This document shows positions 23,102 through 51,384 of a stretch of 64,000 nucleotides of DNA, piece after piece. The stretch is taken from positions 229 through 64,228 of the forward strand of contig JBLHSN010000002.1 in NCBI GenBank assembly GCA_047626195.1, given 5' to 3'. This DNA comes from Myxococcota bacterium. GTDB taxonomy: Bacteria > Myxococcota_A > UBA796 > GCA-2862545. The first letter of the stretch is position 1, and each line of letters starts with the position of its first letter. Position numbers and translations under genes: made by a program. The notes under the pieces were generated by a model that worked only from the letters and a program-made list of their open reading frames with translations, was not told where the DNA came from and did no database searches.

Positions 23102-25012
23102 ATGCGTATCTCGCTGGTGGCGGCACTATCGCTTGCTGGCCTCGTCTGGAGTAGCCTAGCAGCTGCCCAGACATCTCCAAATAACCTTCCCGTAGCCTCC
23201 CCGGCTGCGGACGCGCCAGCGTCATCGGAAGGTACCGACACCCCGACCTCAGCGGAGGGGACATTGAGCGCCGACGACTTGCCGGACGCTGATGAACCCG
23301 CTCTTGAGGCTCCTGGTGACGGCGTGTGGACCTGGGTTTCCAGGTTTGAGCGCGGTAATGCGGATCCGGAGATGGAACAGGCTGTCGAAGAAGCCCTCGA
23401 AGAAGAACGACAAGAAGCGGTGTTGACGGATGAATTCGCAGTCGCGGCGATTCCTGTTGACTACTACACAGATCCGTCTGCCGCTCTGCACACGGACCCG
23501 CTGTTCTTGGACCGGGTTGACCCCGCCGAGTTCGACATCCCAGTGGTCGTCAATGCGTCGGTGGAGAAGTGGGTTCGCTACTTCACTGGGCCCGGGCGCA
23601 GGCATTATGCGCGTTGGATGGGGCGATCTACTACTTATCGGCCCATGATGTACGAGAAGCTAGACGCAGCCGGTCTGCCGCGAGATCTTGTATACTTGTC
23701 GATGATCGAGAGTGGCTACAATGCCCATGCGTACAGCCATGCGGCAGCCGCTGGCCTCTGGCAGTTCATCCCGAGCACCGGGCGTATGTACGGACTCCGG
23801 GTTGACTCATGGGTTGACCAGCGTCGTGACCCGCACATGTCGACCGACTCGTCGATCAAGTTCCTTGGCGAGCTGAACGACATGTTTGGCGATTGGTACT
23901 TGGCTTGGGGCGCCTATAATGCAGGCCCTGGCCGCATCCGTCGCGCTGTTCGCAACTCCGGCTCGGAAGACTTCTGGACGATTCAAGCGGGCGACCACTT
24001 GCATCCAGAGACCGACAACTACGTGCCCAAGATCATCGCTGCTGCCATTATTGGCAAGCATCCAGAGCGGTACGGCTTCACCGACATTGAATTCCAAGCT
24101 CCGTTGTCAGTTGAGCAGGAAATGGTCGAAGGCCAGGTCGAGATCAGCGTGCTCGCTGGTTGTGCAGGCCTGTCAGTCGACGAGTTCAAGCGCTTGAACC
24201 CCTCCCTGCGGGCCTTCACAACCCCTACGGGCAGTACGCGCATCAACGTTCCTTCGGGCATGCAGCGTCAGTTCGTCGCAGCGCTCGAGGCGGTTCCTGC
24301 AAGCCGCCGAGTGACGACGACCTACCATACGGTCCGTCGCGGCGAGACCCTGTCGGTCATTGCTGGTCGTTACGGAAGCTCGGTCTCGAACATCTCACGG
24401 GCAAACGGTCTTCACAATGCCGACCATATCTACGTGGGTATGCGTCTTCGTATTCCGCGAGATGGCTCGGCTGCTGCGTTGGCGTCAACGAGTTCTGCAC
24501 CTACTAGTAGCGCTACTCGCCCCACCACACCGTCGCGTCCTTCGTCGCATACGGTACGGCGCGGAGACACGTTGTCCGAAATTGCGACCCGCTACGGTGT
24601 GTCACAGGGCAACCTAAAGAGCTGGAACTCTCTGCGGTCGGACACCGTCTACTTGGGCCAAGTGCTCAAGGTGTCGGGAAGTGGAAGTTCTACAGCTTCC
24701 TCGGGTGGAAGTACCCGCACGCATGTGGTTGCTCGTGGTGAGAACCTGTCGACGATTGCAGCCCGGTACGGCGTGTCCCTGGCAAATGTGAAGAGCTGGA
24801 ACAACATCAGTAATGCCTCGCACATTACCGTTGGACAGCGCTTGAGCATTCGCGGCAGTGGGCCGGTTTGGAACACGGTAACGGTCCGAAACGGTGACAG
24901 CTTGGGACGCATTGCTACGCGAGAAGGGGTATCGGTATCCCAACTGCGTGAGTGGAATGACATCTCTGGCTCGGTCATCCATCCGGGCCAACGTTTACGG
25001 GTTCGGCGATGA
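23102..25012 (+). CDS. mltD: membrane-bound lytic murein transglycosylase D-like protein with four LysM domains
   Basis: Signal peptide. SLT domain LVYLSMIESGYNAHAYSHAAAAGLWQFIPSTG and AYNAGPGRIRRAV. Four C-terminal LysM repeats (YHTVRRGETLSVIAGRYG..., HTVRRGDTLSEIATRYG..., HVVARGENLSTIAARYG..., VTVRNGDSLGRIATREG...). Confidence 0.85.
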   Translation: MRISLVAALSLAGLVWSSLAAAQTSPNNLPVASPAADAPASSEGTDTPTSAEGTLSADDLPDADEPALEAPGDGVWTWVSRFERGNADPEMEQAVEEALEEERQEAVLTDEFAVAAIPVDYYTDPSAALHTDPLFLDRVDPAEFDIPVVVNASVEKWVRYFTGPGRRHYARWMGRSTTYRPMMYEKLDAAGLPRDLVYLSMIESGYNAHAYSHAAAAGLWQFIPSTGRMYGLRVDSWVDQRRDPHMSTDSSIKFLGELNDMFGDWYLAWGAYNAGPGRIRRAVRNSGSEDFWTIQAGDHLHPETDNYVPKIIAAAIIGKHPERYGFTDIEFQAPLSVEQEMVEGQVEISVLAGCAGLSVDEFKRLNPSLRAFTTPTGSTRINVPSGMQRQFVAALEAVPASRRVTTTYHTVRRGETLSVIAGRYGSSVSNISRANGLHNADHIYVGMRLRIPRDGSAAALASTSSAPTSSATRPTTPSRPSSHTVRRGDTLSEIATRYGVSQGNLKSWNSLRSDTVYLGQVLKVSGSGSSTASSGGSTRTHVVARGENLSTIAARYGVSLANVKSWNNISNASHITVGQRLSIRGSGPVWNTVTVRNGDSLGRIATREGVSVSQLREWNDISGSVIHPGQRLRVRR

Positions 25013-25013
25013 C

Positions 25014-26264
25014 ATGATTCTGGTCCAAGACGCGCTTCGGCGCATACTTCAAGAAGTGCCTTCAGTACCCGTCGAGTCCGTTGGACTCGACGTCGCACTG
25101 GGACGCGTTTTGGCCGAAAATGTAAGTGCTACCATGGCTCTGCCCCGTTGGAATAACTCCGCCATGGACGGGTACGCCATACGTGCCGCGGACACCAAAC
25201 AGGGGGAAGTGACCCTGCGCCTCACAGAGGTAGTCGGCGCTGGGCATTTGCCCAAGTCGCCGGTTCCTCCTGGTTTTGCGTGCGGATTGATGACCGGCGC
25301 GCCACTTCCTGACGGCGCTGACGCCGTCGTGATTGTCGAGAATACGGATGGTAGCCGTCGTGACAGCGTGGTTGTGCGTGGTGTGGCGACCGTCGGCCAG
25401 AACATTCGCCGGCGAGGAGAGGATGTCCAGAAGGGCACCACCATCATCCAGTCTGGTACGCAACTCCGCCCCGGGCACCTGGCTTTACTGGCGTCGCAAG
25501 GACTCACAAGTGTCATGGTGAGTCGGAAGCCGGTTGTCGCTATTCTGACCACTGGAGATGAAGTCGTTGAACCGGGGCGTCCGCTCGGGCCTGGCCAAAT
25601 CTACAGCTCCAACGCTGTGTTATTGAAGGCCATGGTCGACGACGCCGGCGGTGATGGGGTGTACGCCGGTAACGCCATGGATGACCCACACAGCGTCGCA
25701 ACCCGACTACAGTGGTGTGTGGCTGAAGCAGACATCGTGGTCACGAGTGGCGGTGTAAGCGTCGGCGCCTTTGACCCGGTGAAGCGTGCTTTCGACTTGA
25801 TTGGCGCACGCGTTGACTTTTGGAAAGTGGCCATGCAGCCCGGAAAGCCACTCGCCTTCGGTGTTGTGGAGATGACCGGTCGTCGCACGCCACTCATTGG
25901 GCTTCCTGGAAACCCGACCAGCGCTGCAGTCTCCTGTTTGGAGTTTGTTCGGCCAATGGTTCGTGCTGCAATGGGCATCCGCCGGCCTATTATGCCGGTT
26001 TTGGCAGCGATTAGTGCAGATGACATTACCGTTCGGCCGGGCCGGTCGAAGTTTATCCGCGTGATGGTTGAATCGACCGACTCCGGACTGGTGGCGCGAC
26101 TCGCTGGAAAGCAGAGCAGCGGCATGGTGTCGACCTTCGCTCGTGCGAATGCGCTGCTGCATCTCCCCAGTGATAGCGAAGGCGTCAAAGCCGGGGCGCG
26201 GGTGAAGATTCAGCTTTTCGACCCTACTTGCCTCGACCGTTCCGACCTGGGGCTCATGGGCTGA
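25014..26264 (+). CDS. moeA: molybdopterin molybdenumtransferase
   Basis: ATG 25014 lies directly after the mltD stop. LPRWNNSAMDGYAI, GADAVV, ILTTGDEV, SSNAVLL, VVTSGGVSVG, GLPGNPTSA. Confidence 0.9.
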   Translation: MILVQDALRRILQEVPSVPVESVGLDVALGRVLAENVSATMALPRWNNSAMDGYAIRAADTKQGEVTLRLTEVVGAGHLPKSPVPPGFACGLMTGAPLPDGADAVVIVENTDGSRRDSVVVRGVATVGQNIRRRGEDVQKGTTIIQSGTQLRPGHLALLASQGLTSVMVSRKPVVAILTTGDEVVEPGRPLGPGQIYSSNAVLLKAMVDDAGGDGVYAGNAMDDPHSVATRLQWCVAEADIVVTSGGVSVGAFDPVKRAFDLIGARVDFWKVAMQPGKPLAFGVVEMTGRRTPLIGLPGNPTSAAVSCLEFVRPMVRAAMGIRRPIMPVLAAISADDITVRPGRSKFIRVMVESTDSGLVARLAGKQSSGMVSTFARANALLHLPSDSEGVKAGARVKIQLFDPTCLDRSDLGLMG

Positions 26265-26947
26265 TGGATGGTGTCGTCCTCGCTGGAGGGCGCTCGGTTC
26301 GCATGGATGCGGACAAGGGCCGTCTGCCAACGCCGGAAGGCCTGGCGTGGGCGGTTCACATGGCGCGGATACTGTCGAGTGTGTGCGCCCGCGTAGGCAT
26401 TGTCCGTCGGGAAGGGGCGTCTGCAAGTCCTTGGTTTGAGCCCGCTGGACTTCACATTCACGACATCTGGGAGTCTGCAGAGACGCCGCTGCATCCATTG
26501 ACCGGCCTAGCGACGGCGTGTCGGTGGAGCCGGACTCCGTTGGTGCTGGTGGTTCCCGTAGACCTTGTTCGCCTCAAAGTAGAGGATGTTCAGCAGTTGG
26601 TCGTGGCGACTCATCCTGGCGGCGCCACTGGCGAGGCTGACGTGTTGAAGGATGCGAGCGGAGCGCTGATCAGTGAGCAACCGCTGTTTGGTGTGTTTCC
26701 GAGAGCCCTCGCTCATCTAGCGACCGACTCGGCACAGCGGGGAGATGCGGTTCGTCACTTCTTAAATGGTGCTACTAAGGTCGCTTTGCCCAATGCGGAC
26801 CTACGCAATGCAAACCGTTGGTCTGACACAGGGTGGCCGCATCCGCTAGCGCAGCTACGGCAGCGAGGTGTGAGCGAGTGTGCTCTGGAGGCAGAACGGG
26901 AGCGGCTGCGCGCGCGCGGCCTGACGCTTCCGCCTGAACTAGGGTAA
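26264..26947 (+). CDS. mobA: molybdenum cofactor guanylyltransferase-like protein
   Basis: ATGA overlap with moeA. N-terminus MDGVVLAGGRSVRMDADKG (the GxxLAGGxxxRMG..DK motif), HPLTGL, and VVPVDLVRL (the pcDmP equivalent). The C-terminal ~60 aa are atypical. Confidence 0.65.
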   Translation: MDGVVLAGGRSVRMDADKGRLPTPEGLAWAVHMARILSSVCARVGIVRREGASASPWFEPAGLHIHDIWESAETPLHPLTGLATACRWSRTPLVLVVPVDLVRLKVEDVQQLVVATHPGGATGEADVLKDASGALISEQPLFGVFPRALAHLATDSAQRGDAVRHFLNGATKVALPNADLRNANRWSDTGWPHPLAQLRQRGVSECALEAERERLRARGLTLPPELG

Positions 26948-26966
26948 GGCCAGCGTTCAGGAGGCG

Positions 26967-27950
26967 TTGGTGGAACTGCCGAAACCGGTCCGACTACGAC
27001 GCGAGCCCACCGTTGCTGCATTTGAGGAGCGGCGCCTCGTACTGCGCGAGCGCGGGCTGAGCTCGGTGCATCGTGTCCAGGAGCTGTCCGAAGCCCAGCT
27101 TGATCTCGGTACGTCGTTGCGACAAGATCTGGCCGGCTTGACCGACCGCGGGAGTGCCATCGAGCAGCTCCAACAAGATGCGAATGCGGGGGTTCTGGCT
27201 GGCTTAGTTCGCCGATTGACCGCCCGACGAGACGCGCTTGCGCGACGCAGCGCGACTGCAGCCTTGGTGGAAAAGTATGAGGCTGTTCAGACCGCGCTGC
27301 GCCGGGCGACCGCATTGGCGGATGACCTCCGGGTGTGTGCGGTAGAGCTTCAGGGGGCGGTGGACGACCTACACGGGACACAGTCGGAGGCCGAGATCGA
27401 TGCGGTACAGGTTGCAACGCGTATCTTGGCGTTAGAGGCTGACCTGGTGAATCCCGTGTCGGCTCAAGTACGCGACCGTCTGCATTTTGAGCTGGCCAAT
27501 GAGAGCACGCGGCTCGAGCTTCTGGAGGGCATGGCCGAGCTGTCGAGAGAGCAGCTGGGCCCTGCTCGCCGTTTGCGTGACACTGTGCAGCGCCTTCACG
27601 CTCAGACGGCAAAGTACGTGCTGAATGCTGCTGGGACGGTGAACGAGGCCGGACGTAGCATCCAGGCGCTCGGAGTTGCAGCCGACGCTCCCTTGGTGGT
27701 GTTGGAGCTGCAACAAGCCCTGGCGGCTCTGAATGCCTCAATGGCGGGTGGGGATGACGTCATGGAGCTCGCGCAAGATCTTGTTGCGAACGTCTTGCCG
27801 GACCTGGATGCTCAGCTGTCTGCTGCGGATGAGACGCGCAGGTGGGTCGACAAGGGAGCGGGAGGCTTGAACGTGGCGCAGACCAAACTTCAGGCAGAGC
27901 GGGCACTGCGCCGTGCGGCTCGGGCGGAAGTGGATGCATTGGGCTCATGA
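26967..27950 (+). CDS. Ala/Arg/Leu-rich all-helical (coiled-coil) protein, function unknown
   Basis: 327-aa ORF. AGGAGG at 26959-26964 favours GTG 26970 over TTG 26967. Heptad-like, helix-rich sequence with almost no Lys. A TelA-like fold is possible but unverified. Confidence 0.55.
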   Translation: MVELPKPVRLRREPTVAAFEERRLVLRERGLSSVHRVQELSEAQLDLGTSLRQDLAGLTDRGSAIEQLQQDANAGVLAGLVRRLTARRDALARRSATAALVEKYEAVQTALRRATALADDLRVCAVELQGAVDDLHGTQSEAEIDAVQVATRILALEADLVNPVSAQVRDRLHFELANESTRLELLEGMAELSREQLGPARRLRDTVQRLHAQTAKYVLNAAGTVNEAGRSIQALGVAADAPLVVLELQQALAALNASMAGGDDVMELAQDLVANVLPDLDAQLSAADETRRWVDKGAGGLNVAQTKLQAERALRRAARAEVDALGS

Positions 27951-28861
27951 CGTCGGTGAGTCGGCTTCCTAGCAAGCGAGTCGTTCCGTGGCTGCGGGCG
28001 CTCTCGGCAGGGGTGCGGGCTATCGCTCCGCACAACGATTTTGTATCGATGCATGCCGTACTTGCTCACGTAGAGGCACTCTCTCCTTCACTTTCTGCCG
28101 ATCTACTCGCGCCAGCCGAGGTGGACCCGGACTCCGGCATGCCAAGCCTTGCGTGGATGACCCGGGCGACGGCAGAACAGATGCTCGGACGGCGGGCAGA
28201 ACCTGTCTCAGACACCGTTCACAGGCTGGACCCCGAACTTGCAGCGCGCATGGAGGCGCGTTCTCGCCTGGCGACCCACTTGGCGACGCATGAACTGCTG
28301 CCGGTGCTCCGATTGACCGGGCGTGTCCGGCGTGTCGACCAGAGTACCAGCGCATTTGTGGTGTTCGACCACATTGACCCGGCTGGGCGGTGGGTCCGTA
28401 CGCGGGTGGAGCTGACCGCGCCTGCCGGCACCCGCGACCTGGGACTTGTTCAGGTCGAGCCCAACGCGCGAATCGTCGTTCAATCTGGGCTACGGGATGT
28501 TTTTGCCCGGCACATTCTCACCTCGCTTCCATCGCTACATGTGGCCCTTCAGGGGCTCACCATGGCCCGTGTGACTCGCGTATCCAGGGCCAGTCTGGGC
28601 CCATTTTGGTATCCAGGAGGTCCGCAGGTAACGGTGATGCCAGCGGCAGTCGCCAAGACCTTGGTCCTGCATGCGCTGCACGAGGTAATGGGCGACGATG
28701 TGGCTCGCACCGTGACCAACGACCCCTTGGCATCGGTGACTGTAGCGACTGCGGTCGGGGTCCACCGAACGCGACTACGTCGTCTGGCCGTGTTTCGTCC
28801 GGGCGTTGACGCGGTACGCGAGTGGCTTGGAAGTGACGTACTTATCCACCCGTTCGGGTAA
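27947..28861 (+). CDS. hypothetical protein (orphan)
   Basis: The ATG at 27947 overlaps the upstream TGA (ATGA), giving 304 aa (MTSVSRLPSK...). No motif recognised. The 3' end overlaps the convergent 966-aa gene by 20 nt. Confidence 0.5.
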   Translation: MTSVSRLPSKRVVPWLRALSAGVRAIAPHNDFVSMHAVLAHVEALSPSLSADLLAPAEVDPDSGMPSLAWMTRATAEQMLGRRAEPVSDTVHRLDPELAARMEARSRLATHLATHELLPVLRLTGRVRRVDQSTSAFVVFDHIDPAGRWVRTRVELTAPAGTRDLGLVQVEPNARIVVQSGLRDVFARHILTSLPSLHVALQGLTMARVTRVSRASLGPFWYPGGPQVTVMPAAVAKTLVLHALHEVMGDDVARTVTNDPLASVTVATAVGVHRTRLRRLAVFRPGVDAVREWLGSDVLIHPFG

Positions 28862-31742
28862 TGAGCGAGCGGGCCAGCGCTTCGGACGCGGCAACGAAGT
28901 CGGTGTTGGTCGTGTGACAGACCCGTTGGGCGAGCGACCACAGCAGCAGCAGGTCGCCTCCGGGTTCACTGAGACGTGCGCTGTCCTGCTGGCCTAGGCG
29001 AATCACCACCGCACCCATATTGGGCACCGACACAATCGTCTCGGCAATGGTCACGGGCAGGATGGTGCACCTGATGAACGCGCGCAGGTGATGCTGAAGG
29101 TCCGGTCGAGTCAATGCCGTCTTGTCGGGTTGCTGGTGGTGCCAGAGTTCGAGGTAACGAGACGCATCTTCATCGTTCGGATGACTGGCGATGTAGTCCT
29201 CAAGATCGGCATACAAGGCTCGAATCTCAACGTCGAGGTCGGCGTCCATGGTGTCCGCTCGCTCCACGGCGAGCTCAAGCCAGCCACGACACGGCAGTGC
29301 CTCCTGCGTGCCGCGGAAGGTCGATGTCTGCCCTTGCCAGGCTCCGAGAACCCCAAGAGTCGGGTCATAGGGTCGAGGCAGAGCGAGCCAGCCATACCCC
29401 CAATCGCGATGGACAGGCCGGTACACCACCTGGGCGCCCGGGTCTTCATTCCAGGCAGTGCGATGGTCATCGATATTCAGCGGGAGGTCGCGGCCAGCGA
29501 ACAGGTGGATGGCCTCGTCCAGGGTCAGAGCGGTTGTCCATCGGTCGTGATGCGACAGTCCATGTGCGGTAGCTACGCGAAGCCGGTCATCCGCTAGGGC
29601 TTGGTGGGCAGCCATCGTACGTGTGCCCACGGTCAGCGGCAGCTTTTCGGCTTGTTCTTGCGACGCACACACCACACGAGCGATAGCTCTCTGCAGTTCT
29701 GCGTCATCTTCGGGCCATGCGTCATTCTTTTCGAGGTCGATGAGGCGCCTGCAGAGCAACGCTATGCCTGCAAAAGGTGCATACGGAGTCTGACCGTCGC
29801 GCACCAGGTGTGCGACAAATGGGCCTGGTGATTCCTGGACAATAAAGCCTTCGATTGCAATGTCCGGCACTATGCATGCTGACACAATGAGCAGGTCCGT
29901 CACGGTGTTCCGCGTCCAGTCATCATCCGGTTCTAGCCAAATCCAATGACCATCACGCGTGCCTACGGCGAACAGGCGCCGCTGAGTACGAGACGGATGC
30001 TGCAGATGTCCGACTCCGAGACGGCGCTCGAGCGGCGCGAGTCTGTCGACTGCCTCCAGCGTTGATATCGCGAGAACGGCTCCCACTCCTTGTACATCCG
30101 CGAGGGCTTTGGCGCAGATGTTGTCGGTGAGCGGGAGGCTGTGAAGGTGCTGCGCATGACGCTGAAGAGCCGGCGGCAGCCACAGATCTAGTCGGGGGCC
30201 ATCCGCTGTAGCCACGAGCTGTGGCCGACTGTACTCGACGACAACGGCGCGGCGAAGTTCGGTGAGATCCGCCGCGGGCACCTCGTCGAATACTCGTCCG
30301 AGAGCCTGGATGATGAGCGACTTGCAGAAGGATTCCGGTGGGAGTTCTTCAGCCTGTACGAACGCCCACACGCCCGGTAGATCAAGTGGAAGACGAGTCA
30401 GTGAACGGGACACGCCATCTACGATGTGCAGGAGAGGGGTACCCACATCGGCAGCCGGCTCGGGAGCGTCTCCGTCAACATGCACTCGAATCCACAGAGT
30501 TGCGGTGCCGTGAGTGACCCGAGCGCTGTGGATGACCGGACGACTGTTGCGCTGCATTTCTGCGACGAATCGCGCATCTTCTGCACTCTGAAGCCGAGCG
30601 ATGGTCCGACCCGGCAGCCTGTCTGCGAGCAATGCCCCCGTTCGCTCATCGAGGAGCAACACGGGCCAAGGAAACCGCTGGGGGTCGAGGGCACTGTGCG
30701 TCTCAATGACGCTCCCCGGGCTGACAAGGAACAGTGGCTGTGTGGCCGAGAGCGTTGTCAAATCAGAGACCGAGACGTCGGGGCGCAGGCCACATTGTCG
30801 CATAGGCTCGACCAGTACTGCGACTCCTCCGGGTGTGGGGGCTTTGGGGGTGCGAAAGTCGGCCGTCGAGACAGAGGCGTGTTCACTACGCAGGAGCGGA
30901 ATGATGTGGGGCTGTGCGATGGCGAGCATCCCTGTCCAGGCCTCGTCTTGCACAATGTCGACGCCGTCAGCGGACTTTCGCAAGCGGTCGTCACACACGA
31001 TGCCGGCGGTGGATTCCCCCAGCTCGGGAATACGAAGCGTGGCGATGGTCACACCGCCGACGACAACCCGAACCCGTGGCAATACTCCGGGTCGAACGAT
31101 TCCTAGAACACCGCGAACACCGCGTTCGTTGAACGACACCGAGCGCTCCAGCCCTGGTGCCCACAAGCCCGCTGCAGGCTTGGTTCCTAGGATGGGACGA
31201 CCATCGACAAGAATGGGTATTGGCAGGTGAGCGCAGCGCTGCCTGATCAGGGTTTCTTCGTCGGGGACAACAGGTGTCTTCCATGGGCGCCAGCCTGGCT
31301 CGCGAAAGGTGGCTCGAATGTAGGTGCCGACGAGCGGCGCAGCTGAATCGACGGTGATGTCGCCACTTCGACTGATCGTTGCTCGCGACGTCGTTGCAGC
31401 CGTCCCATTGCCAGACTCAATGACGAGGCTCCGCGGATGGCGCAACAGCATCGCGTTGACCCCGAGGGCAAGCTGTTGCAGCGAACGGGTGTCGGCTCGT
31501 GTCTGCGAGACGAACAGGTAGTCGAACAGCCGGGCCAACTCGTCTCGAGTGACCGGCGGTGCTCCCACCCAGGCGACCCGAGACTCTGTCGGTGTGGCAT
31601 CCACGCTGATCCACTGGGCACCTTGGAGTACCGCCGCTTGAATCAACTCCAACACGTACTGGTCGGGGTGACGCATGGCGTACTCACGCATCTTTGCGAT
31701 GGCTTGTTCGCGAGCAATGGTAAAGCGTTGCCGTTCAGCCAC
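28842..31742 (-). CDS. large protein with degenerate (catalytically inactive) GHKL-like N-terminal domain
   Basis: 966 aa. The start overlaps the stop of the upstream GHKL gene by 8 nt. The N-terminus YVLELIQAAVLQGAQWISV aligns with FLRELVQNALDAGSPRIEV of the neighbour (Asn->Ala, Asp->Leu). WVGAPP replaces DFGHGM, and LALGVNAML replaces GRFGIGFASVF. The remaining ~800 aa are unrecognised. Confidence 0.6.
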   Translation of the reverse strand: MAERQRFTIAREQAIAKMREYAMRHPDQYVLELIQAAVLQGAQWISVDATPTESRVAWVGAPPVTRDELARLFDYLFVSQTRADTRSLQQLALGVNAMLLRHPRSLVIESGNGTAATTSRATISRSGDITVDSAAPLVGTYIRATFREPGWRPWKTPVVPDEETLIRQRCAHLPIPILVDGRPILGTKPAAGLWAPGLERSVSFNERGVRGVLGIVRPGVLPRVRVVVGGVTIATLRIPELGESTAGIVCDDRLRKSADGVDIVQDEAWTGMLAIAQPHIIPLLRSEHASVSTADFRTPKAPTPGGVAVLVEPMRQCGLRPDVSVSDLTTLSATQPLFLVSPGSVIETHSALDPQRFPWPVLLLDERTGALLADRLPGRTIARLQSAEDARFVAEMQRNSRPVIHSARVTHGTATLWIRVHVDGDAPEPAADVGTPLLHIVDGVSRSLTRLPLDLPGVWAFVQAEELPPESFCKSLIIQALGRVFDEVPAADLTELRRAVVVEYSRPQLVATADGPRLDLWLPPALQRHAQHLHSLPLTDNICAKALADVQGVGAVLAISTLEAVDRLAPLERRLGVGHLQHPSRTQRRLFAVGTRDGHWIWLEPDDDWTRNTVTDLLIVSACIVPDIAIEGFIVQESPGPFVAHLVRDGQTPYAPFAGIALLCRRLIDLEKNDAWPEDDAELQRAIARVVCASQEQAEKLPLTVGTRTMAAHQALADDRLRVATAHGLSHHDRWTTALTLDEAIHLFAGRDLPLNIDDHRTAWNEDPGAQVVYRPVHRDWGYGWLALPRPYDPTLGVLGAWQGQTSTFRGTQEALPCRGWLELAVERADTMDADLDVEIRALYADLEDYIASHPNDEDASRYLELWHHQQPDKTALTRPDLQHHLRAFIRCTILPVTIAETIVSVPNMGAVVIRLGQQDSARLSEPGGDLLLLWSLAQRVCHTTNTDFVAASEALARSLITRTGG

Positions 31743-33384
31743 GAGTCATGGCCTCGTACAGGTGTGCATGTTCTTGTTGAGTGGCCCCGCGCGCAGTGAG
31801 TATGACCTGAAGGATGGCGAATGCCGCGGCGGTTGGGAAGCTGCGGGCAAGGAGACGAAGCGCGCGAATCGTTGGGTGCCCGTGATTTATCAGAACGTCG
31901 GTATCTATTGGCGCATCGAGATTGCGTAGGATGACCCCCGATTCGTTCGGTACAGGAATGGCCACGGGTTCGTGTCTTGACGCAGCCACCCCCCCGAAAC
32001 GCCCAAAGTGAAGGTGACGAAAGCCGGGGATCAGGGCAATACGCTTGAGCTCGGTCAACAGGGCCAGGTCGACCGGACCCAGGCCGCTGTCTGGAATGCG
32101 CTGTGGCAGAAAGAATCGGTCGGTGGCCGTTCGCAGCGTTCGTAGCTTGGGCACGATGCCCAACATTCGCTTGCGAGGGAAAGCGCGGAACACAGAGCGG
32201 ATAGCCGGAGTATCCGGCAAGACGAAACGCCCTTGCGCTGTCAATGCGTGAACGACGGGGTGGTCCACATCCCCAACGAGCAACACGGCCAGGTCATCTT
32301 CTTGATCCTCCACTTCCGTAAGCGTACGAACGATGCCTGTGGTGTCGCGAAAGAGGGGCTGGCCATCGGGAAGGCTTCGGGTTCCTTCGGGTGCAAGGTC
32401 TGCGGCAAGCCAGCGCAGCAAGGCATCGTCGTCTGCGCCGGACACGGCCGCTTCATGCAGCGCGCGTAAAAGCGACTTGCGGAGCTCTTTCCGAACGTCG
32501 AGGGTCAGCCGCATGGCTCTGTGCCACATGTCGTCTTGGATGACGTTGTCGCGCGTAAGGGTGTGGTCGAGCCCAGGACCGGCAACCTTGATGTTGAGGT
32601 GCCTCAAGCGGTCCGCATAGTCACCAAGAACGGCGACATCTTCGGTGGAGACCAGCGTGAGACCGTGGCTGTAGAACCCAAAGCGCGGGGAGTCTGTGGC
32701 ACTGACGAACACGCGGATTTCGTCCCGTCTAGCCATTGCGGTGATGGGGTCGTCGAGGCCCAGAGGTCGGCTCACCGTCTTCAGGCTCTGAATCGGTTGC
32801 GCGAAAGACGCAAAAGGGTCGTCAGAGACCGTATCTGGCGACGGTTTCACACCGTCCTCGTACAGCACAACAGGCCGTTCACTGTGCTCACACCAGTAGG
32901 CCAAGACGTAGGCAGCTTGCCGCTGGGTTCGCTGTGCGGTGTTGCTGTCCATGCGCTTGCTCAGTGTCACCACGGTTCCGACAACCGGGGTCTCCAGTGC
33001 CGTTACTGTGAATGTACGCTCGGCATCGAAGTGCACTTCCCACGACTCACCAATGCGTCCGGTCGTCACCCAGACGTCATCGGGTCGCAGCGAGAAGACG
33101 GAGGCAAAGCCGATTCCAAAACGCCCAATCTGCGTGAGGTCACCCTGCTTTTGCGACGCGAAGAGGCGAGTTAGCTGCCGGTCGATAATCTCGCGAGTCA
33201 TGCCGTGGCCAAAGTCAGTCACGGACAGCACAAACACGCCCTGGGCCGAGTTGTAGTCCGTTCGCACTTCGATACGGGGAGAGCCCGCATCCAGGGCGTT
33301 TTGAACCAGCTCCCGCAGGAAGTCGAGCGGGCGTGCGAACTGGTCGACCAAGTTGTTGAGGGCTTGCTCGGCGAGACTCGCCAT
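31735..33384 (-). CDS. GHKL (Hsp90/MORC-like Bergerat fold) ATPase, non-canonical family
   Basis: 549 aa. N-box ELVQNALDA, G1 box DFGHGM, G2 box GRFGIGFASVF. No Hsp90 middle/C domain, MutL, GyrB or His-kinase features recognised. The start lies 2 nt after the tyrA stop. Confidence 0.75.
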   Translation of the reverse strand: MASLAEQALNNLVDQFARPLDFLRELVQNALDAGSPRIEVRTDYNSAQGVFVLSVTDFGHGMTREIIDRQLTRLFASQKQGDLTQIGRFGIGFASVFSLRPDDVWVTTGRIGESWEVHFDAERTFTVTALETPVVGTVVTLSKRMDSNTAQRTQRQAAYVLAYWCEHSERPVVLYEDGVKPSPDTVSDDPFASFAQPIQSLKTVSRPLGLDDPITAMARRDEIRVFVSATDSPRFGFYSHGLTLVSTEDVAVLGDYADRLRHLNIKVAGPGLDHTLTRDNVIQDDMWHRAMRLTLDVRKELRKSLLRALHEAAVSGADDDALLRWLAADLAPEGTRSLPDGQPLFRDTTGIVRTLTEVEDQEDDLAVLLVGDVDHPVVHALTAQGRFVLPDTPAIRSVFRAFPRKRMLGIVPKLRTLRTATDRFFLPQRIPDSGLGPVDLALLTELKRIALIPGFRHLHFGRFGGVAASRHEPVAIPVPNESGVILRNLDAPIDTDVLINHGHPTIRALRLLARSFPTAAAFAILQVILTARGATQQEHAHLYEAMTRG

Positions 33385-33386
33385 GG

Positions 33387-34496
33387 CTACGGCTCGCGAA
33401 TCAAGGTTTCGATGATGCGGTCGGACTCCTGCTGCGCTTGTTCGGCAAAGTCACTGAACCAGGCCGCTGTCTCTTCAAACAACGCCATGAACCCCGTGCG
33501 GTCGCGGTGAGCAATGAGTGCGTGCAGCTCGGTCGTCGCCTCGCTCAACAGGTGGCGAACGCGGTCGCCATCCGGATTATCGAACAGGATGGATGCGTAT
33601 AGCTCGGGGTCCTGTGCGAATAGCCGACCGATAACGGCCATCTCCAAGCGGTAGATGGGGCTTGTGTATCGTAAGCTCTCGGAGATCGAAACCCCAGTTC
33701 GCGCAAGGGTTATTCCAGTCGCAATGGTGCGAAAGTGTGTGATGACCTGAACCAGTGCCATCATGCTGTCGTGTTCTTTCGGCGTGGTCTCGATCAGCTC
33801 GGCTCCCATCGCGGCCAGCTGGGTCAGCATCCAAGTGGTACGGGGACCGGACTTGACTCGACAAACAACGACTTTCTGTCGGCGAAGAGAGGATGTGGTC
33901 GGCCCAAACATTGGATGTAATCCGAGCGTTTCGCAGGCGGCACTTTCGTATCCAGCACAGACATTTGCCTTGAGCGAGTTGATGTCGCATAGGAGGGCGT
34001 CTGCCCGCATGTGAGGGAGAACGTCTTGAAGCACCTGTTCAACCGCATGCATAGAGACCGACAGCAGAACAATGTCCGAGGCAGCGACCAAGGCGAAGCG
34101 GTCGCGTGGGTCGTCTATGTCCGTCAGAACAACTTGGGCCCCGCGCGATTCAAGGCAGCGCGCAAACCATTGTCCCATGGCGCCGTTGCCACCAATGATG
34201 AGTACTGTTGGCCCTTCTGGCGGAATGTCTTGGACCGTTTCTTGGGCTGTATGTCCGGCCTCCATGACCGCTTGAACCACGGCCACTCCTGTGGCCGCTG
34301 GCAAGCCGAGGGCTGTGCTTCGCTGGCGCGTGCGGGCCAGCACCACTTCTTCACGACTGCGATCGAAGATAGCCGTACCCGTGGCGGCTTTGAGCGCACC
34401 AATACGCCGGGTGATGGCGAGTCGGTTTGCGGCTGCGGTGAGCAGCGCTTCGTCTGCGGCATCCAGCTCGGCACGGAGCTCTTGTAGTGTGGTCAT
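33387..34496 (-). CDS. tyrA: bifunctional chorismate mutase / prephenate dehydrogenase (T-protein)
   Basis: 369 aa. N-terminal CM type II (LRAELDAADEALLTAAANRLAITRRIGALK). NAD site LIIGGNGAMGQWFA. GLHPMFGP. EHDSMMALVQVITHF, as in E. coli TyrA. Confidence 0.9.
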   Translation of the reverse strand: MTTLQELRAELDAADEALLTAAANRLAITRRIGALKAATGTAIFDRSREEVVLARTRQRSTALGLPAATGVAVVQAVMEAGHTAQETVQDIPPEGPTVLIIGGNGAMGQWFARCLESRGAQVVLTDIDDPRDRFALVAASDIVLLSVSMHAVEQVLQDVLPHMRADALLCDINSLKANVCAGYESAACETLGLHPMFGPTTSSLRRQKVVVCRVKSGPRTTWMLTQLAAMGAELIETTPKEHDSMMALVQVITHFRTIATGITLARTGVSISESLRYTSPIYRLEMAVIGRLFAQDPELYASILFDNPDGDRVRHLLSEATTELHALIAHRDRTGFMALFEETAAWFSDFAEQAQQESDRIIETLIREP

Positions 34497-35197
34497 TTGA
34501 CCTCGTTTATGACGATTCCGCGCTCGGAAAATCGGGGGTAAATATCTCCGGTTACCGTTCTGTCGTGCACCTCGGCATACGTCGACAGCGGAATGAGGCC
34601 CATCGTCAGCTCCTCTGCGGTCAAGGTGTTGCTGTCGGGCATTGCAGCGTATGCCTGTCGGAATCCGTCAAGCCAGGCCGGTAAGCGGTCGATGATTCGC
34701 TGCCGGACGCCTGTCTCATCCAACGCCAGCAAGGCGTCCAACGCGGACCAGCCAAAGGCGCGGTGTACGGCTTCGTCTCGTAAGATTCGGGTCAGTGCCG
34801 GCTGGACAGCAGGATGTGTCGCGGTGCGCCGCATGGCGTCGAACAACGGTACGGCGAAGGTCTCACCCAGACAGAAGTTTCGGACCACATTGTCGACGAG
34901 AGCCGCGAGTGGACCTTCGGGACTGGGAAGCTCAAGGGCGGCCAACTCCAGCGGAATGGGCTCGTCCGCACCCCCTAGGGCGGTCAAGCAGTCATGTGAC
35001 AGACGTGCGTGGTCCAGCTCATCACCGACGATTCGTAGCGCAGTGCGATGTAGGTCGTCCGGCAGGCCAACCTGAATCGCACGGTGGAGCGCCTGCGACG
35101 CGTACGTTGCCGACGTGTATTCGGCGGCGACTCGGTTGCTCCACTCCGCCAGTACGCGGCGACTCGCACTACCCACCGTTGGTGCCGTCCTCGTCAT
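34493..35197 (-). CDS. ferritin-like di-iron carboxylate protein, function unknown
   Basis: 234 aa. Four-helix di-iron ligand pattern read directly: E (AAEYTS), ExxH (DELDH), E (LGETF), ExxH (DEAVH). The stop overlaps the tyrA start (ATGA). Confidence 0.65.
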   Translation of the reverse strand: MTRTAPTVGSASRRVLAEWSNRVAAEYTSATYASQALHRAIQVGLPDDLHRTALRIVGDELDHARLSHDCLTALGGADEPIPLELAALELPSPEGPLAALVDNVVRNFCLGETFAVPLFDAMRRTATHPAVQPALTRILRDEAVHRAFGWSALDALLALDETGVRQRIIDRLPAWLDGFRQAYAAMPDSNTLTAEELTMGLIPLSTYAEVHDRTVTGDIYPRFSERGIVINEVK

Positions 35198-35627
35198 CTC
35201 GGGTCGGCCGCGTCTTATAGGTGTCCATTAGTGGCTGTGCGCGTTCGGGACAGGCAATCTGTGTGCCACAGGCTTCGGTTGCACAATCTTCACGAACACG
35301 GTCGCCGATGCCATCGGGCCCGCTAGCTCGGAATGGCGAGACGAAGTCCTTGTAGCAGTCCCCCTCGGGTGTGACGTACAAGAAGGGGATGGGCGGATTG
35401 GTCGCGCCCTCCGGATGACTGCTTGCAACGTCATTCCACGATGGCAGACTCGGTTGCTGGGGGGGTGGCGGATTCTCCATCGGCTCTTGACTGGGCGCTG
35501 GCGGATTCTCGGTCGGTTGGATGTCCGGCGGTGGCGGATTTGTCGTAAGCTCAATTTTGCCGTTGCAGGCTGAAAGTGACAGGGCTGAGCCCGCTGCGAG
35601 GACGGCGATGATTGGAGTGGTTTTCAT
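35169..35627 (-). CDS. proline-rich lipoprotein
   Basis: Signal and lipobox GSALSLSACNG. Repeated (T/E)NPP(P/A)P units. Four Cys in the C-terminal half. 152 aa. Confidence 0.6.
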   Translation of the reverse strand: MKTTPIIAVLAAGSALSLSACNGKIELTTNPPPPDIQPTENPPAPSQEPMENPPPPQQPSLPSWNDVASSHPEGATNPPIPFLYVTPEGDCYKDFVSPFRASGPDGIGDRVREDCATEACGTQIACPERAQPLMDTYKTRPTRDDEDGTNGG

Positions 35628-35659
35628 GTTGCGGAGTATAGTCCACGTCGGAGGAAGTC

Positions 35660-36796
35660 ATGTCCGACACGTTCCACGCTGTCGTGATTGCCATTGGTGA
35701 ACACGCCGAGCCCGCTGCAGTCCAAGCGGCAAAGACCATTGAATCGGCAGGCCACACTGTCACCGACCGCCACACCTGCACTCTCGAAGATGCCATGCGC
35801 CACGTCTCGGCGCTCGGTGCCGCTGGCGCGGTAGATTTCGTGTGCGTGGTTGGCGGGGATGGGAGTGAGCTTGCCAAGGTCAGTGGCGCTCTAACCGCGC
35901 CGTTACCCGTGCTCTCAACGGTTTATGCCGTACGTCGATTCCGCGAAGCGGGTGGCAATGCTCTGGGCGAAGGCTTTGCGATGGGGCGCTCTGAGGAGGC
36001 TGTGGTCATAGCGGTTCCCGCAGATGACGGTGCGATTGCCTTGGCTCTGGGCCTCGTCTTGCCGGCTCTCCCTGCACTGTGTGGTGGTCAGCTGGTCGCG
36101 GTGAATGAAGATGCCGCAGAGGATGACGAGGAGTTGATTGCCGAGGTGGTCGAAGAAGAAGAGGAGGCGGCTGCGGTCGAGCCCGATCACACGACGGTGG
36201 CTCGAGGGTTTAGCCTTGGGTCGTCAGAGATGCGCAGCACCGGGCCGTCGATTGACGGCGCTGTTCCTGGCATGAACTTCGGTCCCGGCTGGCAAAAGTG
36301 GGTGCAAGCGCACGATGCAGAGATTCTTCGCGACCGTAGGGAAGAGCTGCCGAACAACATTGATGAGCTCGCTCCTGTGCTTCAAATCCTGCACACCGCC
36401 GGTGAGCAAGCAGTGCTGAAGATTGGGCGAAACAAGATGAGCCTGTGGGGGTGGCCGGACCTCCAGCGTTCAACGAGCAAGGTGATTGCTGTGGGGTGGG
36501 GACTCCCGTTTGTGGAGGTTGTGGCCCTGCATCGTCACCCGACGAATACCGGTCTTGCGATTGAGGAAGAACGAGCTCTAGCGGGGCGTCGTAGTGCAGA
36601 TCTGGACGAGCTGACCAAGTCCATGACTGGGCGTCGCAACAAGAACGCCGAAGGGGAGCTGTTCGCCGTGGAGAAGGGCCGAGTCTGGACCCAGCGCGAT
36701 TCGCTCGTCTACGAATGGGACGGCAAGAAGGAGCGCAACGTGGGCAGCATTCAGCAAGCGCTAGCATCATTGTTGCTCAGCTGGAGCCAGCGCTAG
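35660..36796 (+). CDS. hypothetical two-domain protein (possible MoaB/MogA-like N-domain, acidic linker, unknown C-domain)
   Basis: GGAGGA 5 nt upstream of the ATG. The N-terminal ~140 aa (HAVVIAIGE...DFVCVVGGDGS) loosely resemble the MoCF-biosynthesis fold. Linker EDAAEDDEELIAEVVEEEEE. The C-terminal 200 aa are unrecognised. Confidence 0.5.
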   Translation: MSDTFHAVVIAIGEHAEPAAVQAAKTIESAGHTVTDRHTCTLEDAMRHVSALGAAGAVDFVCVVGGDGSELAKVSGALTAPLPVLSTVYAVRRFREAGGNALGEGFAMGRSEEAVVIAVPADDGAIALALGLVLPALPALCGGQLVAVNEDAAEDDEELIAEVVEEEEEAAAVEPDHTTVARGFSLGSSEMRSTGPSIDGAVPGMNFGPGWQKWVQAHDAEILRDRREELPNNIDELAPVLQILHTAGEQAVLKIGRNKMSLWGWPDLQRSTSKVIAVGWGLPFVEVVALHRHPTNTGLAIEEERALAGRRSADLDELTKSMTGRRNKNAEGELFAVEKGRVWTQRDSLVYEWDGKKERNVGSIQQALASLLLSWSQR

Positions 36797-51308: not shown

Positions 51309-51384
51309 TGGGGCGTCGTCAAGTGGTAAAGACACCAGGTTTTGATCCTGGTATGCGTAGGTTCGAATCCTACCGCCCCAGCCA
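51309..51384 (+). tRNA. tRNA-Gln (anticodon UUG)
   Basis: Cloverleaf read by hand: acceptor TGGGGCG/CGCCCCA; anticodon stem CCAGG/CCTGG with loop TTTTGAT (anticodon TTG); T-arm GTAGG-TTCGAAT-CCTAC; discriminator G; encoded CCA. Close to E. coli tRNA-Gln. Confidence 0.9.

Follow-up and report, generated by a model that had tools for sequence, protein, structure and literature searches.

What could a bacterium gain from an ATPase encoded side by side with a larger relative that has lost its own ATP site? The question is raised by two adjoining genes on the minus strand of a 64,000-nucleotide stretch from a marine Myxococcota bacterium (assembly GCA_047626195.1, contig JBLHSN010000002.1, positions 229 to 64,228), here called the window. 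The upstream gene (31735..33384, stop codon included) encodes a protein of 549 amino acids, which we call G, and the downstream gene (28842..31742, also with its stop) a protein of 966 amino acids, P. A first-pass annotation, made from the sequence alone, had read the two as an active-type GHKL ATPase coupled to a homologous paralog with a destroyed ATP site. The coordinates, translations and motifs that it quoted for both proteins are all present as described, and the central observation, an ATPase followed by its catalytically dead paralog, held up in the comparisons reported below. Profile searches and Foldseek comparisons of AlphaFold models gave Hsp90-like folds for both proteins and curated family membership for neither. 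The reading that we favour, at about even odds, is that G and P form an obligate, permanently asymmetric heterodimeric clamp of the Hsp90 type that remodels other proteins.

An intact Hsp90-like chain

The translation of G contains the motifs LRELVQNALDAGS, VTDFGHGMT and IGRFGIGFASVFS, and the protein has all of the elements by which the GHKL superfamily is recognised (N-box, G1 DxGxG, G2 GxxGxG and GT), intact within an ATP-binding Bergerat domain that spans residues 1-180 (32845..33384; all coordinates of parts of G and P refer to the minus strand). Across the 55 G sequences aligned, E25, N29 and D32 of the N-box, D57, G59, G61 and M62 of G1, G87, G90 and G92 of G2, and G136 and T137 of the GT element are invariant. 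Pfam places the domain in HATPase_c_3 (PF13589, E 2e-12) and in PF02518 (33 bits, cut-off 26.4), and a match to SACS (PF25794) reaches 36.7 bits against a cut-off of 32.8, with its best stretch only at residues 70-99. In NCBIfam, sacsin-like, HSP90-family, HtpG and MutL models were matched, all at or below their curated cut-offs, the sacsin-like model NF047352 scoring 49.1 bits where 50 are called for. By profile comparison the N-terminal domain of G is closer to that of HtpG (E 7.5e-9) than to the crystallised sacsin repeat region SR1 (E 2.7e-5). A HisKA domain was sought in G and not matched; the GHKL domain is N-terminal, and histidine-kinase models aligned at E 2e-5 or worse, with cut-offs of 300-1,000 bits.

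The first-pass annotation had denied G any of the domains that follow the ATPase in Hsp90, a view that the structural model contradicts. The AlphaFold2 model has a mean predicted local distance difference test score (pLDDT) of 87.4 and a predicted template modelling score (pTM) of 0.80; its C-terminal region is confident, and the only poorly defined segment is the ATP lid, residues 77-86. Foldseek aligned this predicted model end to end, over 630-700 columns and with a query-normalised TM-score of 0.40-0.51, to full-length Hsc82, TRAP1, GRP94, Hsp90-beta and HtpG (E 8.8e-22 to 2e-17), and all of the top 50 matches were Hsp90s of full or nearly full length. As modelled, G is a three-domain chain of the Hsp90 type, with N-terminal, middle and C-terminal (N-M-C) domains. 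Residues 181-335 (32380..32844) make up the middle-domain-like part, a beta sheet followed by a long helix (assigned by DSSP to residues 215-268 and 285-315, respectively), which carries the motif LDHTLTRDNVIQD. Here H274, T275, T277, R278, D279, V281 and D284 are again invariant in 55 of 55 sequences, and the loop LEHTLTRDNVLQD, in which R278 lies, resembles LPLNISREMLQ of Hsp90. Motif similarity, taken with the full-length Foldseek match, suggests that R278 is the equivalent of Arg380 in the Hsp90 catalytic loop. Residues 336-549 (31735..32379) form a C-terminal alpha/beta region ending in three helices, a candidate dimerisation domain.

Resemblance to Hsp90 is also visible at the level of single motifs, FLRELVQN..DA in G corresponding to FLRELISNASDA in Hsp90, and IGKFGIGF to IGQFGVGF. 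The lid is different: against that of HtpG it falls short by about 10 residues, with gaps of 6 and 4 residues where the E. coli protein is aligned, and no lid signature of the LGTIAKSG type was found in G in that alignment, D57 and G87 being just 30 residues apart. One G homologue (P0088, L107:16242-18467) is 742 amino acids long, some 150 residues above the usual length.

A paralog that has lost its ATP site

P carries ELIQAAVLQGA, WVGAPP and LALGVNAML in its translation. Its relationship to G is already detectable by BLASTP, which aligns the two N-termini in register at 20% identity over 173 residues (E 0.002), and it becomes firmer when alignments are compared: a profile-profile comparison of 33 P sequences with 55 G sequences gave E 3e-5 over 264 columns, and hhalign with trimmed profiles aligned residues 24-283 of P to residues 17-301 of G with a probability of 93% (E 3e-7). 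Since the alignment reaches residue 301 of G and residue 283 of P, homology runs past the ATP-binding domain into the second domain. A further shared stretch that had been proposed (QPLF...G.V.T) was not borne out, P 295-420 against G 315-420 giving an hhalign probability of 0.3%.

The hhalign comparison with G defines residues 1-185 of P (31188..31742) as a degenerate Bergerat domain. The position of the Mg-binding Asn is occupied by A, S or G in all 33 P sequences, and the adenine-binding Asp of G1 and the glycines of G2 have been lost across the family. All 33 sequences retain E32, Q35, G139 and T140, and these four are among the residues that are invariant or nearly so at the altered site, together with A42, G60, A92, N96 and D259. 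The replacements are thus themselves conserved, and the N-terminal domain of P is therefore under selection other than for nucleotide binding. Indeed, this domain is the best-conserved part of the protein, with 25 invariant columns, most of them within residues 19-259. Judged by its sequence, P is a pseudo-GHKL protein, a member of the superfamily by descent that lacks the active site, and it is predicted to be unable to bind nucleotide. The module that follows, residues 186-300 (30843..31187), is middle-domain-like and homologous to the middle domain of G, with the catalytic-loop arginine replaced (LRKSADGVDIVQD); across the family the position matching R278 of G is H, G, Q or L.

The remaining residues of P, 301-966 (28842..30842), form an extension without sequence similarity to G or to known families: hhalign found no significant match to G in this part, and no PDB sequence matched it. 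Searches with P as a whole in Pfam, NCBIfam, PADLOC and PDB sequences likewise returned no match. The first-pass annotation had set aside roughly 800 residues of P as unrecognisable, which overstates the case, as homology to G extends to about residue 300 and the AlphaFold2 model (pLDDT 82.9, with the extension modelled confidently) matches full-length TRAP1 and Hsp90 at the top of its Foldseek list, at E 5e-13 over 480-650 columns. DSSP assigns a pattern of five strands and a long helix four times along the P model, including residues 405-487, 589-672 and 771-853. Compared module by module on a 153-sequence alignment, the first resembles the middle domain of G (E 2e-4), the fourth does so marginally (E 0.01-0.015), and no match was found for the second and third. 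Internal middle-domain-like repeats in P are suggested by DSSP and unconfirmed by sequence comparison, and hence unproven.

Conservation of the pair

To place the pair in a wider context we scanned one genome per GTDB species, which yielded 182 loci with relatives of P, and retrieved 80 of these for gene order; adjacency to tyrA and to the linked genes described below was counted over 83 loci, and the junction between the two genes over 92. In about 70 of these 80 species-level loci the gene immediately upstream of P, on its strand, is G, and the synteny of the pair is thus conserved. Five of the exceptions have P within about 720 nucleotides of a contig end, too short for an upstream G; in two others (L062 and L072) the order is reversed, with a G-like match downstream of P, and two (L063 and L083) have no detectable G. 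Order, strand and a coupling-type overlap persist in relatives whose G and P are down to about 35% and 27% identical, respectively, to the proteins of the window, and the genes on either side are otherwise unrelated between lineages.

The junction itself is of the kind associated with translational coupling, as the first-pass annotation had recognised. In the window, P starts with GTG at 31742-31740 and G ends with TGA at 31737-31735, giving an overlap of 8 nucleotides (31735..31742, minus strand). The GTG is the only possible start, because a TGA in the P frame sits two codons upstream, and because this start is forced, P in the window is missing some 16 residues present at the N-terminus of most of its family. 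Among the 92 junctions, the P-frame start nearest to the G stop overlaps it by 4 nucleotides in 72 loci and by 8 nucleotides in three, all in the clade of the window; the remainder mostly lie between -1 and +31 nucleotides.

An exhaustive profile search shows P to be a large family, with 1,862 clusters at 50% identity for E<=1e-3 and 372 for E<=1e-30, and with typical members of 1,100-1,300 amino acids; neither Pfam nor NCBIfam has a model for it. Where sources name the proteins, the names are 'hypothetical' or 'ATP-binding protein', P itself being annotated as 'hypothetical protein' only. The credibly named carriers are Myxococcota (including Nannocystales/Nannocystis and Polyangia), Bradymonadales and Microvenator; cultured model myxobacteria such as Myxococcus xanthus are not among the 80 loci. 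For many metagenome-assembled genomes with a Myxococcota-type locus the records give 'uncultured Enterobacterales', 'Rickettsiales' or 'Alphaproteobacteria', labels that are probably wrong. One metagenome-assembled genome, ERR599052_bin.23, has two P loci (L020 and L055), each with the linked gene Y (below) nearby, which could be a duplication, strain heterogeneity or a binning artefact. No relatives were found on IMG/VR viral contigs, and base composition and GC content are uniform throughout the region; given the lack of viral relatives and of a GC anomaly, we rejected a viral or mobile origin.

Genes linked to the pair

Clustering of all open reading frames in the retrieved loci identified two further genes, X and Y, which in the window lie on the plus strand and converge on P. 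X (26967..27950) encodes a coiled-coil protein of about 327 amino acids, typically about 330 in the family, with the invariant motif IQALGxAADAPxVVxEL. Y (27947..28861) encodes 304 amino acids, about 310 in the family, with the motifs GPFWFPG, DPL and RERRF. X directly precedes Y in all cases; in the window the ATG of Y overlaps the stop of X (ATGA), and the 3' ends of Y and P overlap convergently by 20 nucleotides. X and Y occur within 6 kb of the pair in 31 of 83 loci and in three arrangements: converging on the pair from beyond P, running in the direction of the pair ahead of G (Bradymonadales, L135), or running in that direction after P (L037 and L074). A reverse census on metagenome contigs, starting from Y with a narrowed Y alignment, found P within 5 kb in 19 of the approximately 23-26 loci with enough flanking sequence. 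The idea that X or Y might be a detached piece of P or G was rejected (hhalign probability at most 0.4%). In L132 (8772-13435), on a contig of 7.5 Mb with planctomycete-type neighbours (PSCyt1, PSCyt2 and DUF1501), X and Y are followed by a 775-residue WD40-like beta-propeller protein; G and P do not occur within 10 kb of them, and X-Y is therefore an independent module that reaches beyond Myxococcota.

Certain lineages add two more genes to the cluster. The first encodes Z, a 554-residue AAA ATPase with the Walker A motif GRPGSGKT, and lies between Y and G in three co-directional clusters (L135:7157-8821, L065:2601-4229 and L070:2498-4153); Z is assigned by its Pfam match only (PF00004, 22.8 bits, cut-off 21.2), no PDB sequence having matched it. 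A conserved protein of about 541 amino acids, W, is encoded directly downstream of P in clusters of the Bradymonadales type (L135:14691-16316, L061:9826-11355 and L065:9784-11313). The window contains no homologue of Z or W. Searches of X, Y and W against Pfam, NCBIfam, PADLOC and PDB revealed no family beyond coiled-coil noise. With X and Y also linked to the pair, 'two-component' is probably an incomplete description.

How the pair may work

GHKL ATPases act as dimers that close around ATP through an N-terminal dimer contact. In the mechanism we propose, G is a compact, complete Hsp90-like chain, with a short, sacsin-like lid in its N-terminal domain, a middle domain bearing the putative catalytic-loop arginine, and a C-terminal domain; it would bind and hydrolyse ATP at what would be the only ATP site of the pair. 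P, derived from the same ancestor, retains the N-terminal and middle-domain folds and would be an inert matched partner, its extra 650 to 950 residues or so most likely serving as a platform for a client or adaptor. The two proteins would be translated from one message by way of the coupled stop/start junction. Binding of ATP to G would drive closure of its N-terminal domain on the dead N-terminal domain of P, as in the N-terminal dimerisation of Hsp90, and one ATP per cycle would produce a conformational change that remodels the bound protein. X and Y appear to be working partners of the pair in many lineages, as does the AAA ATPase in some.

Heterodimerisation, ATPase activity, a protein-remodelling role and a client are what we infer from several lines of evidence. 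The paralogy of G and P spans both of the domains from which Hsp90 builds its closed N-terminal dimer, their gene order is fixed with a recurrent stop/start overlap, and their N-terminal arms, which rank among the most conserved segments of each protein, are as strongly conserved as expected for a GHKL N-terminal dimer contact; all three observations favor a heterodimer. Remodelling of proteins is preferred to nucleic-acid chemistry because a coiled-coil protein and an AAA ATPase are linked to the pair and nucleic-acid enzyme domains are absent. A broader suggestion is that G and P, joined by X, Y and, where it occurs, the AAA ATPase, constitute an unrecognised multi-subunit machine of the Hsp90 class, found mainly in Myxococcota and Bradymonadales, in which a one-ATP asymmetric heterodimer, its dead subunit offering a large client platform, would carry out a lineage-specific assembly or remodelling task. 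This we put forward only tentatively, and consider rather doubtful as a whole.

Several observations weigh against these proposals. G remains far below the thresholds of the HtpG model NF003555 (37.4 bits against 371) and the HSP90-family model NF010683 (39.4 bits against 455), with the N-terminal domain alone matched in each, such that transfer of the Hsp90 mechanism is an extrapolation; on these scores G is not an HtpG orthologue. Hsp90 dimerises constitutively through its C-terminal region, and there hhalign found no similarity between the two proteins. Pairs without X and Y within 10 kb occur in Nannocystales loci, and X-Y without the pair within 10 kb occurs in L132, L134, L087, L088, L092 and L114; because the two modules also occur apart, the four-gene idea describes a partial association only. 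Finally, no link to a client, a co-chaperone or a stress regulon was found.

The dissimilar C-termini open the way to a different arrangement, since with no similarity detected there G could homodimerise and P could instead be a regulator or a client. In its full form, this explanation makes G a homodimeric chaperone and P a pseudo-enzyme that serves as regulator, scaffold or dedicated client, its dead N-terminal domain docking in the manner of a co-chaperone and, as a decoy, capping the N-terminal domain of G or setting when it closes. That G alone has a complete N-M-C architecture, and that P is nearly double its length, with extra sequence specific to the P family, would both fit. A stop/start overlap and near-universal adjacency, however, are better suited to subunits of fixed stoichiometry, and P keeps its N-terminal and middle-domain modules in register with G, which is more than a decoy needs; we therefore judge a homodimeric G with a regulatory or client P to be unlikely. 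Still less credit is due to the notion that P resembles G only through a functionless remnant, that it works without ATP or G, and that the two genes are neighbours through tandem duplication alone. The pair is clearly duplication-born and P has lost its ATP site, but order, strand and overlap with the G stop recur in most loci despite divergence, making neutral persistence unlikely, and the N-terminal domain is the part of P that is conserved best. This we consider very improbable.

The first-pass annotation had pointed toward nucleic-acid-targeting and conflict systems, in which case the pair, as a GHKL module resembling those of MORC, MutL or sacsin, would serve an anti-phage or anti-mobile-element system by clamping or sensing nucleic acid. 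Weak matches of the G N-terminal domain can be cited for this, to TmtA of the Tiamat defence system in PADLOC (best E 3e-10, residues 3-118), to MutL (TIGR00585, 33.5 bits against 180) and to a BbrUII/HgiDII restriction-enzyme model (21 bits), as can the presence of MORC3, only at rank 49, in the Foldseek list of P and the variation of accessory genes (X-Y, the AAA ATPase and W) between lineages, a common trait of defence systems. Although TmtA shares a sacsin-like GHKL N-terminal domain with G, the Tiamat models describe single proteins of 1,300-1,780 positions, of which about 100 residues are matched, and P is unmatched. No nuclease, helicase, methylase or other effector domain was found in the linked genes, P, X and Y have no significant PADLOC match, and the top 50 Foldseek matches of G include no MutL, MORC or GyrB. 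The context is not that of a defence island: the neighbours of the pair in the window (moeA, a mobA-like gene, tyrA, and pirin and bestrophin genes) are housekeeping genes, GC content is uniform, and there are no viral copies in IMG/VR. Recurrence across genomes labelled Myxococcota and Bradymonadales also looks unlike the usual patchy distribution of defence genes. Taking both sides together, a role in conflict is improbable.

The locus and its neighbours

On the minus strand of the window, a gene for a 234-residue protein (34493-35197), tyrA (33387..34496), G and P follow one another in succession. The 234-residue gene overlaps the start of tyrA by 4 nucleotides, and only 2 nucleotides separate the tyrA stop from the ATG of G, as had been reported. 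The tyrA product is a bifunctional chorismate mutase/prephenate dehydrogenase (NF008400, 291 bits, cut-off 273), an upstream neighbour outside the conserved module. The earlier proposal that the pair rides on a housekeeping transcript fits the close adjacency to tyrA seen here and does not generalise: tyrA adjoins G in only two of the 83 loci, those of the two closest relatives, L002 and L004, in which G is at least 71% identical. With adjacency restricted to these, we rejected a functional link to tyrA. The 234-residue protein gave only faint ferritin-like, DUF455 and haem-oxygenase-like matches (E about 0.08-0.09); upstream of its gene is a 152-residue open reading frame without family (the two covering 34493-35627, minus strand), and both are conserved in L002.

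Across the convergent boundary, moeA (24894-26264), a gene for a MobA-like NTP transferase (26228-26947), X and Y run head to tail on the plus strand (24894-28861). The spacer between the mobA-like gene and X is 20 nucleotides, and the pair adjoins tyrA in similar fashion; the lineage of the window seems to merge unrelated genes into compact transcription units. A promoter and terminator scan of 26000-36500 found no signal above shuffled expectation, and searches for tandem repeats and for Rfam matches near the locus found none. The sole tRNA or Rfam match in the whole window is a tRNA-Gln(TTG) at 51309-51384 on the plus strand.

Relation to known systems

The closest known relatives are members of the Hsp90 family (HtpG, TRAP1 and Hsp82/Hsc82), which share with G a Bergerat site with FLRELxxN..DA, IGxFGxGF and GT and a middle domain with a conserved arginine loop, and with both G and P the N-M-C architecture as judged by Foldseek (E 1e-22 for G and 5e-13 for P). 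Within Hsp90 dimers, the two ATP sites act asymmetrically, as established for TRAP1 and yeast Hsp90. Unlike the family, G has a shorter chain (549-600 amino acids), a shorter lid and scores far under the family cut-offs, and it is missing the Hsp90 signatures in the lid and before the catalytic loop. Hsp90s are homodimers of identical active chains, whereas G is paired with a dead, enlarged paralog, and P has no counterpart among known members. Uncharacterised 'HSP90-like' proteins without the family signatures were noted in bacteria and archaea in a survey of 2006 (PMC1525184).

Sacsin offers a second point of comparison. Its repeat regions have been described (PMC9880540) with a short lid and a continuous sheet that leads into a five-strand core, together with a long helix and an arginine-bearing catalytic loop, and the same succession of short lid, sheet, five-strand core, long helix and arginine loop is seen in G when it is set against the sacsin SRR/SIRPT unit (SR1 plus the middle-repeat domain). 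Sacsin also resembles the pair in that several Hsp90-like modules of differing status act together. It differs in being one eukaryotic polypeptide of 4,579 amino acids with DnaJ, UBL and HEPN domains, whereas G and P are two bacterial polypeptides without them.

The design of unequal GHKL chains has precedents of another kind. In MutL-alpha (MLH1-PMS1/PMS2) and among the TopoVIB-like subunits of the meiotic SPO11 complex, paralogous GHKL chains differ in their ATPase capacity or have lost it, and G and P would share with them the use of two unequal chains in one complex. Those systems act on DNA with endonuclease or transducer/Toprim partners, whereas no DNA-related domain is linked to G and P.

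At curated thresholds neither protein falls into a characterised family, in keeping with the earlier view that the pair could not be assigned to a described system, and no description of it was found in the literature searched, coverage of which was incomplete. The folds of G and P are already known; what is new is that an active-type Hsp90-like chain and a dead, enlarged paralog are conserved as a pair, along with the large unannotated P family and the linked, likewise unannotated X-Y genes. A definition of the P, X and Y families would close a gap that recurs when the genomes of predatory, socially complex bacteria are annotated, and would add a bacterial relative to the poorly understood Hsp90-like modules of the sacsin type. 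Hsp90 is usually presented as a homodimer of identical active chains, and unequal use of its two ATP sites has so far been argued from engineered heterodimers and TRAP1 structures. A natural pair in which one site is dead throughout a clade would open one-site operation to study without engineering.

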